DNA of 64,000 nt from Escherichia coli (lineage in GTDB: Bacteria > Pseudomonadota > Gammaproteobacteria > Enterobacterales > Enterobacteriaceae), in NCBI RefSeq assembly GCF_003334255.1, contig NZ_QOWU01000006.1; one strand, given 5' to 3'. A program made the translations under genes and the position numbers. Every line of letters begins with the position of its first letter. Within the stretch, counting starts at the first letter, position 1. Of this stretch, positions 99 through 36,275 are shown one piece after another. A model generated the notes under the pieces. It was given only the letters and a program-made list of their open reading frames with translations, was not told the origin of the DNA and ran no database searches.

Positions 99-2381
99 TC
101 AGAAATGCATATTGGCTGTGAGCAAGAAGGTTCTTGGCTCGCCCGGGTGATAACGGTAGCCGCTCTTGTTGATTGAGGCGACGTAATCGGTATCAAACAG
201 GTTGTAAACGTTTAGCTGGAAGTCGAGATTGCGATTAACTCGATACCCCAGTTTGGCATCGGCGACCCAGTAACCTTCGGTAAACGCTGGCGTTCCCACC
301 GCGCCGTCTGAACCTTTATGCATACTGCCGATATAGCGTGCGCCCGCGCCAACAGAGATATCGTCGGTTGCCTGATATTGGCTCCATAAGGTGAAGGCGT
401 GCTCCGGGGTATACGGCAGCGATGAGGAACCATCCTGGGCAACATCTTTGCCGTTTTTGATGGTTGCTTTTTGCTGGGTATAGCCGCCAATCACCTGCCA
501 CGCGGGAGTGATATTCCCGGCCACGGATATCTCATAGCCTTCGACGCGTTTCTTACCGTATTGCGAGTAAGTTCCGTCATCATTTTGCTCAACTTCATTT
601 TCGATATCAGTGCGGAACAGCGCGGCGGTGAGCAACAGACGTTTATCCAGAACCTGCCATTTGGTGCCAATCTCGCTGGTGTTGGCTTTTTGCGGTTTAA
701 AATCGGTGCGGTTGGCACTGTTACCGCTGCCAGACTGCGCAAGGGCGAAGTTGTTGCCGCCCGGAGGCTGCTGGGAAACGGCATAGTTAATATAGACATT
801 GCCGTTTTCCGTCAGGTGATACAGCGCCCCGGCTTTCCAGTTCATCAGATTGCCCGACTTGGCGGTGTCGACGGTGGTGACCGGAGAACCTTTTGCCACA
901 CCAGTTGGGCAGGTGATGGCACCGCGTCCGCTGCCGCCGCAGGCGGTGGCACTGTCATATTCAGTATGATAATTATCCAGACGGATCCCGCCGTTCAGCT
1001 CAAAATCACGGGTGATTTGCAGCGTATCAAAGGCGTAAATTGCGAAGGTATCCGTCTGACCATTGGCGTTTGCGCCGTTGCGCGTCAGGCCGCCGGGATG
1101 AATGCTGCTGTCAGGATGATAAATATTTACCGCGGGTAACGTCACCGGATTAACGCCGTAGTTAGTCTGCGTTTCACGGGTAAATTCCACGCCGGTACTG
1201 ACATCATGACCGATAGAACCGGTATAGAACGTCGAGGTCAGGTTGGTCTGGTTGGTGAGAATTTTATTACTCACATCTTTGGTATTCGCCGTGCGTGACC
1301 AGGTCCAGCTATTCACATCGCTGGTGGGCTGAGTAATATTCGACGCCCCGCCCATAATCGCCGTCATCAGGTAATCCTGCTTTACGCGCGACCAACGGGT
1401 AGTATTGCGAATGGTGGTGTTATCGTTGATGTCGTGCTCAAAACGCATGGTGGCGGTGTCGGTGGTCGAATCGTCGTAATCGGAATCCGTGCCGTAAAAG
1501 TTATGAGTATCAACTTTTCCGGAATGATTCAGGGCCGCCGTTCCCGCAGATGGGGCAGAATAGCCCGGCAAACCGATGGTCGGAATGCCGCCGTCTGGCG
1601 TGTTGTGCTGGGTGACATGCAGATAATTAAGATACAAACGATTCGCTGTACCAAGGCCAAAAGCGACAGAAGGGGCGACGCCGTAACGCTCATTTTTGAC
1701 TTTGTCGCGTCCGGCATCGTGCGTTTTTTCGCCCATTACATTCAGGCGCACCGCGGTGGTATCACCAATGACCTGATTGACGTCCAGCGTGCCGCGGCGG
1801 AACCAGGCGCTGCCAATACTGGCGGAGGCGTCAATGCCGGAATCATTGCGCGGCTGCTTGCTGATCATATTGATCGAGCCTGTCGGTGCGCTGCGCCCGT
1901 AGTCGGTGCCGGACGGCCCTTTAATCACTTCGACCTGCTCGGTATTGAAGGTGTCGCGCGAGACGCTGCCGATATCGCGAATGCCATCAATATAAATACT
2001 GTTAGAGGTATCGGCACCACGCATATAAATGGCGTCGCCAGTGGTGGAGTTACCGTTCTCACCCGCAAAAAACGCACCCACGCCGGGGACGTTTTTGAGC
2101 GCGTCGGTAAGGTTGGTTGCGCCCTGATCTTTAATCACTTGTTCAGAAATTACCGTCATCGTGCGGGTAGTATCCGCTACCGGACGCGAGAATTTCGGAT
2201 CGGCAGATTGTTGTGGCGCATAAAGCGAAGGCGTTGATGCTTCGACAACCAGCGTGTCATCCGCGTTAGTTTGCCCTTCGGCGGCGAGTGCCTGAGCCAC
2301 AGGCGTGATGCCAATACAAAGACCGGCAAAGAACGTGAGCGAATGAAATTGTCTGGCAGGGAAATTGTGATTGTTTTCCAT
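99..2381 (-). CDS. fiu: TonB-dependent outer-membrane catecholate siderophore receptor Fiu
   Basis: 760-aa ORF with signal peptide, TonB-box-like DTLVVEA near the N-terminus and C-terminal ...ANMHF ending in Phe, typical of OM beta-barrels; Fur box upstream. Confidence 0.93.
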   Translation of the reverse strand: MENNHNFPARQFHSLTFFAGLCIGITPVAQALAAEGQTNADDTLVVEASTPSLYAPQQSADPKFSRPVADTTRTMTVISEQVIKDQGATNLTDALKNVPGVGAFFAGENGNSTTGDAIYMRGADTSNSIYIDGIRDIGSVSRDTFNTEQVEVIKGPSGTDYGRSAPTGSINMISKQPRNDSGIDASASIGSAWFRRGTLDVNQVIGDTTAVRLNVMGEKTHDAGRDKVKNERYGVAPSVAFGLGTANRLYLNYLHVTQHNTPDGGIPTIGLPGYSAPSAGTAALNHSGKVDTHNFYGTDSDYDDSTTDTATMRFEHDINDNTTIRNTTRWSRVKQDYLMTAIMGGASNITQPTSDVNSWTWSRTANTKDVSNKILTNQTNLTSTFYTGSIGHDVSTGVEFTRETQTNYGVNPVTLPAVNIYHPDSSIHPGGLTRNGANANGQTDTFAIYAFDTLQITRDFELNGGIRLDNYHTEYDSATACGGSGRGAITCPTGVAKGSPVTTVDTAKSGNLMNWKAGALYHLTENGNVYINYAVSQQPPGGNNFALAQSGSGNSANRTDFKPQKANTSEIGTKWQVLDKRLLLTAALFRTDIENEVEQNDDGTYSQYGKKRVEGYEISVAGNITPAWQVIGGYTQQKATIKNGKDVAQDGSSSLPYTPEHAFTLWSQYQATDDISVGAGARYIGSMHKGSDGAVGTPAFTEGYWVADAKLGYRVNRNLDFQLNVYNLFDTDYVASINKSGYRYHPGEPRTFLLTANMHF

Positions 2382-2645
2382 TTTGCAGGTGACTTTTTCT
2401 TATATGTTGAAATTTTCACTGCCACGAGAAAGCCTCTCTGCGGATGCGATGCCACTGTTAATCCCGTGATAGTGCTCGTGAAAGTGATAATAATTTTGAT
2501 AAGCATTATCACTTGGAGCGATTTTCTATCACCCATTGCGCGAAAAAGAAATACATTTATTTACATTGAGTTCATATTTGATGTTTTTTGATTACAAAAC
2601 AGACGAAAACTGCATCCAGAGGCGAATGCAGTTACGTTGGTGGGG

Positions 2646-2906
2646 TTATTTGTAGATGGTTGCAGTACCGAACATCTGGTCATTTCCGCCTGCGGAATTA
2701 ATGACATAACCTTTCGCGCCTTGTTCGCGCGCTTTTTCTGCCAGTTTATCCTCCAGATCGCTTAGGTTTGATGCGCCAGTTGCCGAAACGGTACCGGCGG
2801 GCCGTAGCTGACCGCTGTCCAGGTTACTCATCGGTTGCGCGGCATAAGCCGTGAGAGAGATTCCGCTTAGGACGGTGGCAATCAGTAGTGTGAGGCACTT
2901 TTTCAT
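2646..2906 (-). CDS. mcbA: Small periplasmic protein McbA (YdgH/DUF1471-like; colanic acid/biofilm associated)
   Basis: 86-aa product MKKCLTLLIATVLSGISLTAYA... with signal peptide. The track ORF (134 aa) extends upstream; I chose the internal ATG at 2906..2904 that directly precedes the signal peptide. Confidence 0.8.
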   Translation of the reverse strand: MKKCLTLLIATVLSGISLTAYAAQPMSNLDSGQLRPAGTVSATGASNLSDLEDKLAEKAREQGAKGYVINSAGGNDQMFGTATIYK

Positions 2907-33926: not shown

Positions 33927-36275
33927 ATGCTGAGTTTATACGAAAAGATAAAGATAAGGCTGATAATTTTATTTTTATTGGCAGCACTGTCATTTATTGG
34001 TCTTTTTTTCATCATTAACTATCAACTGGTATCGGAACGCGCGGTAAAACGTGCCGATAGCCGCTTTGAACTTATTCAGAAAAACGTTGGCTATTTCTTT
34101 AAAGATATTGAACGTTCGGCCCTGACATTAAAGGACTCACTGTATTTATTAAAAAATACAGAGGAGATTCAACGCGCCGTGATTCTGAAAATGGAAATGA
34201 TGCCATTTTTAGACTCGGTGGGACTGGTACTTGATGATAATAAATATTATCTCTTTTCACGGAGGGCGAATGATAAAATCGTTGTTTATCATCAGGAACA
34301 AGTAAATGGACCGCTTGTCGACGAGTCAGGGCGGGTTATTTTTGCCGATTTTAACCCATCGAAACGACCGTGGTCGGTGGCTTCAGATGACTCTAACAAC
34401 AGCTGGAATCCGGCATACAATTGCTTTGATCGTCCGGGTAAAAAATGTATCTCTTTTACGCTACGTATCAACGGCAAAGATCACGATTTGTTAGCGGTAG
34501 ATAAAATTCATGTCGATTTAAACTGGCGGTATCTGAACGAGTATCTTGATCAAATCAGCGCTAATGATGAAGTTCTATTTTTGAAACAAGGTCATGAGAT
34601 CATTGCCAAGAATCAACGCGCTCGTGAAAAACTGATTATTTATAATAGCGAAGGTAATTATAATATTATTGATTCTGTCGATACGGAGTATATTGCAAAG
34701 ACATCAGCAGTGCCAAATAATGCATTGTTCGAAATCTATTTTTATTATCCTGGCGGTAATTTATTGAACGCATCAGATAAACTTTTTTATCTACCGTTTG
34801 CGTTCATTATTATCGTGTTGCTGGTGGTATATTTCATGACCACTCGTGTGTTCCGTCGGCAATTTTCTGAAATGACCGAGCTGGTTAATACGCTGGCGTT
34901 TTTGCCCGACTCAACGGATCAGATCGAGGCTCTGAAAATTCGCGAAGGCGATGCGAAAGAGATTATCAGCATCAAAAATTCGATCGCGGAAATGAAAGAT
35001 GCCGAAATTGAACGGTCAAATAAATTGCTCTCACTGATCTCTTACGATCAGGAAAGCGGTTTTATTAAAAATATGGCGATTATTGAGTCCAACAATAATC
35101 AGTATCTGGCTGTGGGGATCATCAAACTGTGTGGTCTGGAAGCCGTGGAAGCGGTGTTTGGTGTTGATGAACGCAATAAAATCGTCAGGAAATTGTGTCA
35201 GCGAATTGCCGAGAAATATGCGCAATGCTGCGATATCGTGACATTCAATGCCGATCTCTATTTACTTCTGTGTCGGGAAAATGTACAGACATTTACCCGT
35301 AAAATAGCGATGGTAAACGATTTTGACAGCAGCTTTGGCTACCGCAATCTGCGCATCCATAAGTCTGCCATTTGTGAACCTTTGCAGGGGGAAAACGCCT
35401 GGAGTTACGCAGAAAAACTGAAACTGGCGATTTCCAGTATCCGTGACCATATGTTCTCCGAGTTTATTTTCTGTGATGACGCGAAACTCAACGAAATAGA
35501 AGAGAATATCTGGATTGCGCGTAATATTCGCCATGCAATGGAAATTGGCGAACTATTCCTCGTCTATCAACCGATCGTTGATATTAACACCCGCGCCATT
35601 CTGGGCGCGGAGGCGTTGTGCCGTTGGGTTTCTGCGGAGCGGGGGATCATTTCACCGCTGAAGTTCATTACCATTGCTGAAGATATCGGGTTTATCAATG
35701 AGCTGGGTTATCAGATTATTAAAACGGCAATGGGTGAATTCAGACATTTTAGTCAGCGTGCGTCGCTGAAGGATGATTTCTTACTGCATATTAATGTTTC
35801 GCCCTGGCAGTTAAACGAACCGCACTTTCATGAGCGTTTTACCACCATCATGAAAGAAAATGGCCTGAAGGCGAACAGCCTCTGTGTTGAGATCACTGAA
35901 ACCGTGATAGAGCGAATTAATGAACATTTTTATCTCAATATTGAACAACTGCGTAAACAAGGGGTACGGATATCGATTGATGACTTTGGCACCGGTTTGT
36001 CAAACCTGAAACGTTTTTATGAAATTAATCCAGACAGCATAAAGGTGGACTCGCAATTTACCGGCGATATTTTCGGTACTGCGGGAAAAATTGTGCGCAT
36101 TATTTTCGATCTGGCACGCTATAACCGGATCCCGGTGATTGCGGAAGGCGTAGAGAGCGAAGACGTTGCGCGCGAATTAATTAAATTAGGATGTGTTCAG
36201 GCTCAGGGGTATCTGTACCAGAAACCCATGCCATTCTCCGCCTGGGATAAAAGTGGAAAATTAGTTAAAGAGTAG
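33927..36275 (+). CDS. pdeI: Membrane-anchored c-di-GMP phosphodiesterase PdeI (YliE; EAL domain)
   Basis: 782-aa product from ATG 33927 ([12 protein letters not shown]...); two TM segments flanking a large periplasmic region; C-terminal EAL domain (EALCRW...). Sequence is visibly AT-rich. Confidence 0.88.

Follow-up and report, generated by a model that had tools for sequence, protein, structure and literature searches.

Genes and signals between mcbA and fiu

The window, by which we mean the whole 64,000-nt stretch of DNA analysed, is Escherichia coli chromosome colinear with K-12 MG1655, and a window position equals the NC_000913.3 coordinate minus 839150. Within it, mcbA and fiu lie in tandem, both on the minus strand, and not convergently, as a first-pass annotation of the sequence had described them. 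The features of this region are listed below in the direction of transcription, with positions relative to the fiu transcription start site (TSS) where these apply.

2646 to 2906, minus strand: mcbA coding sequence, codirectional with fiu.
2595 to 2633, minus strand: intrinsic terminator of mcbA, just past the stop codon, consisting of a 10-bp hairpin and then a U-rich tract, UUUUCGUCUGUUUUG.
2549 to 2566, minus strand: ATGTAAATAAATGTATTT, the most conserved block of the spacer (-52 to -35; mean column identity 0.92 in 20 species).
2521 to 2528, minus strand: candidate -10 region TAGAAAAT, placed from the TSS position, with GAAAAT at -12 to -7 or TAGAAA at -14 to -9.
2514, minus strand: fiu TSS, an A, giving a 133-nt leader with the ATG at +134.
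2382 to 2513, minus strand: fiu 5' leader, with both Fur boxes at its 5' end.
2497 to 2511, minus strand: Fur box A, the 7-1-7 motif TGATAATgCTTATCA on the fiu strand, with one mismatch (13/14), +4 to +18.
2486 to 2510, minus strand: the 25-mer GATAATAATTTTGATAAGCATTATC, 105-129 bp upstream of the fiu ATG, +5 to +29.
2485 to 2499, minus strand: Fur box B, the 7-1-7 motif TCAAAATtATTATCA, with two mismatches (12/14), +16 to +30.
99 to 2381, minus strand: fiu coding sequence, a 760-aa open reading frame for a TonB-dependent catecholate siderophore receptor, with its ATG at 2381.

The spacer between the two genes is 264 nt long and AT-rich (39% GC). Of 5426 complete E. coli genomes, 5422 match a 701-bp query across it, the hit invariably falling between these two genes, and in MG1655 the 25-mer GATAATAATTTTGATAAGCATTATC occupies 841636-841660 (NC_000913.3). 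The mcbA terminator, which lies ~90 bp before the Fur boxes, was missed by a simple terminator scan (T-run rule) and detected by folding: it has a dG of -15.9 kcal/mol (z -4.0), and none of 200 shuffled sequences folds as well.

An Rfam scan of positions 2300-2700 returned no family, and no known leader RNA element is thereby indicated. Most of the fiu leader is poorly conserved apart from the Fur boxes and an ATAAG..AAGTCAC patch (2389-2403, minus strand), 8-22 nt before the ATG. This patch is kept in all 20 species of the alignment described below, with a mean identity of 0.80; it may serve in ribosome binding or as a target for an sRNA.

A pair of overlapping Fur boxes in the fiu leader

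The first-pass annotation had placed a Fur box 105-130 bp upstream of the fiu start and credited it with a 13/14 match to the Fur half-consensus. Both statements stand. The 25-mer at 2486-2510 lies 105-129 bp from the ATG, and the 14-mer TGATAAGCATTATC within it (2497-2510) matches TGATAATCATTATC at 13 of 14 positions; it is the sole match with at most one mismatch in the 64-kb window, and 100 shuffles yielded none. Read on the fiu strand, the 25-mer consists of four contiguous head-to-tail NAT(A/T)AT hexamers (GATAAT, GCTTAT, CAAAAT, and TATTAT, followed by a C), which match at 5/5, 4/5, 4/5, and 5/5 specified positions, respectively. An array of NATWAT hexamers is one form of Fur site, in a model reportedly put forward by Escolar et al.

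The palindromic 7-1-7 form of the motif, scanned as TGATAATNATTATCA, resolves the same DNA into boxes A and B, which are offset by 12 bp and overlap by the shared trinucleotide TCA. Across the whole window, matches with at most two mismatches number five, against 0.21 expected. As a local control, the 264-nt spacer alone was shuffled 20,000 times with dinucleotide content preserved. At least one 7-1-7 match with no more than one mismatch arose with a probability of 0.0005, and two matches (6-18 bp apart) arose in 0 of the 20,000 shuffles; a chance origin of the Fur-box pair is excluded. The classical 19-mer GATAATGATAATCATTATC gave no match at three or fewer mismatches, and the site scores only 15/19 (four mismatches) against it, as its 7-1-7 units are offset by 12 bp and not by 6.

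Three further 7-1-7 matches in the window are intragenic. One, TGATGATTATTATCA (20116-20130; one mismatch), lies at the 3' end of ybiV, with the ybiU ATG ~205 bp downstream; the others, at 12117-12131 and 34235-34249, lie in opgE and pdeI. Published MG1655 Fur ChIP-exo peaks overlap none of the three; the closest, P25, is at ~18644-18656 in the window, at the ybiU stop codon. These intragenic matches are probably nonfunctional.

Fur occupancy and Fur-dependent repression

To relate the boxes to Fur binding in vivo, published data were mapped onto the window. In MG1655, the ChIP-exo peak P24 (840869-840893) is labelled intergenic with fiu-ybiX as its target, is occupied solely under iron-replete conditions, and is tabulated as present in the earlier dataset of Seo et al. 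as well (PMC10164565; Gao et al. 2023). The peak coordinates belong to an older genome version, since in NC_000913.3 they fall inside the fiu coding sequence. We take the offset to NC_000913.3 to be +777 here (776 bp of IS1 and one further base pair), a conversion that was checked only to within a few bp. It agrees with the fepA-fes peaks, which reach that spacer only once shifted, and with the published ybiU ArcA site, which then falls within a few bp of a triple GTTA repeat. After this shift, P24 corresponds to window positions 2496-2520 (-6 to +19 from the TSS), overlapping the 25-mer by 15 bp and spanning the TGATAAGCATTATC core of box A. The W3110 peak at 842081-842093 needs no conversion; with the fiu ATG at 841953 in that numbering, it corresponds to 2509-2521.

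Fur ChIP had been named in the first-pass annotation as a check on the box, and the published peaks of both MG1655 and W3110 map onto the site. The ChIP-exo footprints are centred 5-15 bp to the promoter side of the box pair, and box B (+16 to +30) is outside the direct cover of the reported peaks. P24 and the element described here are the same site, with the published footprint ~10 bp nearer the promoter than the coordinates of the 25-mer.

Expression data agree in showing Fur dependence of fiu. Deletion of fur raises fiu, ybiX, and ybiI by log2 fold changes of 5.47, 5.21, and 3.04 in MG1655 and of 10.0, 7.1, and 5.3 in W3110, which for fiu is an increase of 44-fold to ~1000-fold; across fur mutants of nine strains, the fiu log2 fold change (DESeq) ranges from 5.2 to 10.0, and fiu is among the 36 genes of the core Fur regulon common to these strains (PMC10164565). 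The gene is also part of the Fur-1 iModulon. A fiu-lacZ fusion is repressed by Fur (PMC4676285; Beauchene et al. 2015), and Fur repression is not the same in aerobic as in anaerobic growth. In the literature searched, no in vitro Fur footprint on an E. coli fiu fragment was found. The ChIP-exo peaks, the derepression in fur mutants, the fiu-lacZ fusion, and the cross-genus conservation presented below support the annotated assignment as a Fur box of an iron-repressed fiu operon. The 25-mer is the already documented Fur operator of E. coli fiu, ordinary and well conserved.

Transcription start, promoter, and transcript end

In SMRT-Cappable-seq supplementary data, fiu has a single TSS, 841664 on the reverse strand of NC_000913.3, represented by 7627 reads in M9 medium versus 143 in rich medium (PMC6131387). 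This start, at 2514 in the window, puts the Fur boxes (+4 to +30) in the leader, downstream of the TSS and not over the -35 and -10 elements, in a region normally contacted by RNA polymerase. The 25-mer is consequently upstream of fiu only in the sense of the start codon, as the first-pass annotation had it; relative to the TSS it lies downstream, at +5 to +29.

The TSS points to TAGAAAAT as the candidate -10 region, accompanied by a weak -35. Of 20 orthologues, 14-17 carry TAGAAA, TAAAAA, or TAAGAT in the corresponding alignment column. Among E. coli sequence variants (loci L050 to L053), single-nucleotide polymorphisms cluster just upstream of the TSS, with T, G, or A found at position 2517 (-3). 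A T-to-C change in strain 07_3636 at 2521 alters the -7 T of the candidate GAAAAT, and the fiu promoter of this strain may be weakened if GAAAAT is the true -10.

The published fiu transcript ends at 839218 (window 68), and 4821 of the M9 reads (63%) run through this point; the operon variants fiu-ybiX-ybiI and fiu-ybiX-ybiI-ybiJ are tabulated (PMC6131387). Folding of the DNA around ~68, between the fiu stop codon (99) and ybiX, found no hairpin beyond those of shuffled sequences (z -0.5), and the transcript end there is not an obvious intrinsic terminator.

Conservation of the operator

To examine conservation, one genome per species was scanned with Fiu, giving 44 loci, 38 of them with a full upstream region. 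At least one 7-1-7 box (at most two mismatches) is kept in 34 of these 38 orthologous loci, and both boxes are kept in 24; the genera represented are Escherichia, Citrobacter, Klebsiella, Raoultella, Leclercia, Enterobacter, Silvania, and Pseudocitrobacter. The box start lies ~109-132 nt upstream of the ATG in nearly all loci that keep a box, the exception (L020) having boxes at -201 and -189. Mean column identity over 20 aligned species is 0.85-0.88 for the box region, compared with 0.66 for the spacer overall; in conservation, the box region ranks second among the blocks of the spacer. Pantoea and E. ludwigii have a diverged form of the boxes, TGATAACCATTGGCGTTATCATT.

E. coli strains differ from one another in the 66 bp around the box, where 1458 genomes are only 90-95% identical. 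The window was aligned with six other E. coli sequences (seven in total), picked to include divergent ones. All polymorphisms in this alignment fall outside the specified positions of the Fur motifs, and the sole change inside a box affects the central N of box A, which the motif leaves free.

One strain, E. coli MSI001 (L054), carries a 768-bp IS1 inserted at 2582-2590 with a 9-bp target duplication, TGTTTTTTG. The insertion separates the mcbA terminator from the fiu promoter, at about -68 to -76 from the TSS; the conserved upstream block, the promoter, and both Fur boxes are intact.

A conserved upstream block and regulatory inputs besides Fur

Conservation in the spacer peaks not at the Fur-box pair but at ATGTAAATAAATGTATTT, at -52 to -35. 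Published ArcA ChIP peak centres at fiu, 840921 and 840928 in old coordinates, map to window positions 2548 and 2555, i.e., over this block, and no motif was called there ("NA"). In agreement, the ArcA consensus GTTAATTAAATGTTA has no match at three or fewer mismatches in the fiu spacer, and the GTAA/GTAT repeats of ATGTAAATAAATGTATTT are spaced 10 bp apart, as opposed to 11 bp in ArcA sites. The block may be an UP element or the site of a regulator not yet recognised.

ArcA binds the fiu promoter region (PMC4676285), and Crp is an annotated regulator of fiu; a CRP site sought by eye gave only poor half-site matches. Given ArcA binding and the oxygen-dependent Fur repression, Fur is not the sole input at fiu. 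Elsewhere in the window, upstream of ybiU, GTTATAAATAAGTTAATGCAAGTTTA (19965-19990) contains three GTTA repeats with 11-bp spacing that coincide with a strong published ArcA site.

Proposed mechanism and alternatives

We regard it as nearly certain that the 25-mer is the Fur operator of the fiu-ybiX(-ybiI) transcription unit, made up of two overlapping boxes through which transcription is repressed when iron is plentiful. This assignment draws on the motif, the iron-replete occupancy, the Fur-dependent repression, the TSS, and the conservation, each of which is seen directly in the sequence or in published data. When iron is plentiful, Fe2+-Fur dimers would occupy the boxes at 2497-2511 and 2485-2499, the four-hexamer array, with a likely stoichiometry of at least two dimers. 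Fur bound at +4 to +30 would sit on DNA that RNA polymerase needs for its own grip on the promoter (to about +20) and would block the formation of a stable or open complex or else promoter escape, turning fiu off; the exact initiation step at which it acts is our inference. As the Fur array is within DNA needed for open complex formation and clearance, both the fiu message and the read-through message would be blocked. When iron is scarce, apo-Fur would leave and the promoter would fire, giving fiu and read-through ybiX, ybiI, and ybiJ transcripts.

With the entire Fur array positioned past the TSS, repression by trapping or blocked escape, and not by exclusion of polymerase, is possible. An elaboration of this scheme, which we put forward tentatively as possible rather than probable, is that the fiu promoter is more than a single Fur switch: Fur would trap the polymerase or block its escape, and ATGTAAATAAATGTATTT would be a noncanonical site for ArcA or for another regulator linking catecholate uptake to oxygen. 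A rival reading is classical occlusion, in which the true fiu promoter overlaps the boxes, and we consider it unlikely. Two arrangements would fit it, one with a -35 GTGATA (2532-2527) and a -10 GATAAT (2510-2505) and the other with a -35 (T/G)TGATA (2512-2507) and a -10 TATCA(A/C/T) (2489-2484). A consensus scan does select GTGATA-16-GATAAT, and a position-weight scan, in which scores reach 10.4, places both arrangements at the same alignment columns in 11-13 of 20 orthologues. Such matches are nevertheless expected, as Fur boxes resemble -10 and -35 hexamers in composition; moreover, the -10 loses its T6 (GATAAC) in Escherichia sp. MOD1 and Pantoea. What decides the matter is the TSS, which in both M9 and rich medium maps 16 and 37 nt upstream of the starts that these candidates predict. 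Both were set aside on this ground, and promoter-like matches over the boxes are treated as by-products of Fur-box sequence.

The remaining alternatives bear on the target of the site and on its authenticity. The first-pass annotation had suggested that Fur at the site could also influence the mcbA 3' end. Proximity alone, with the mcbA stop codon 135 bp from the box, speaks for such an effect, which we judge very improbable, as mcbA is codirectional with fiu, has its own strong terminator (2633-2595), and is unchanged in an MG1655 fur mutant (log2 fold change 0.40, P = 0.31; PMC10164565). The suggestion is not supported, and mcbA is insulated from the Fur operator. That the boxes are a chance match in AT-rich DNA, with fiu iron regulated indirectly, e.g., by RyhB or another regulator, might draw on the base composition of the spacer and on the three intragenic 7-1-7 matches of the window. 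Against it stand the shuffled spacers, in which even one box is rare and the pair is absent, the ChIP-exo peaks on the site in two strains, and the retention of the boxes across genera while their flanks drift, and this reading is left with only the slightest probability.

Relation to known Fur sites and significance

Fur control of fiu is textbook knowledge. Canonical Fur operators take the form of the 19-bp GATAATGATAATCATTATC, of two overlapping 7-1-7 motifs, or of three or more NAT(A/T)AT hexamers. The fiu site shares its regulator, its motif family, and the logic of an iron-loaded repressor with the canonical boxes of fepA-fes, fhuA, cirA, and iucA, and fepA, cirA, and fhuA further resemble fiu in having an iron-replete-only ChIP-exo peak in the same dataset and in belonging to the core regulon and the Fur-1 iModulon. 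Its peculiarities are only mild. The 7-1-7 units are offset by 12 bp, whereas those of the classical 19-mer are offset by 6 bp, and the array lies wholly past +1 (+4 to +30), unlike operators placed over the -35 and -10 hexamers, as many other Fur operators are.

A Klebsiella pneumoniae fragment from upstream of fiu is positive in both FURTA and EMSA (PMC5998039). The 19-mer reported there, GCAAATGATAACTATTCTT, differs from the E. coli site and from TGATAATGATTATCA, seen in the aligned Klebsiella species, which are others than K. pneumoniae.

The site is already present in genome-wide ChIP-exo tables, and its recognition here adds little. What is added is detail, namely, an operator at +4 to +30, a box pair with a 12-bp offset, conservation across eight genera, and the insulation of mcbA. 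Together with CirA, Fiu is an entry route for catechol-conjugated antibiotics, cefiderocol being an example, and for siderophore-microcins. As Fiu admits such antibiotics, the exact position of the operator and the TSS aids the reading of promoter mutations in clinical isolates, which gives this detail a modest practical interest.
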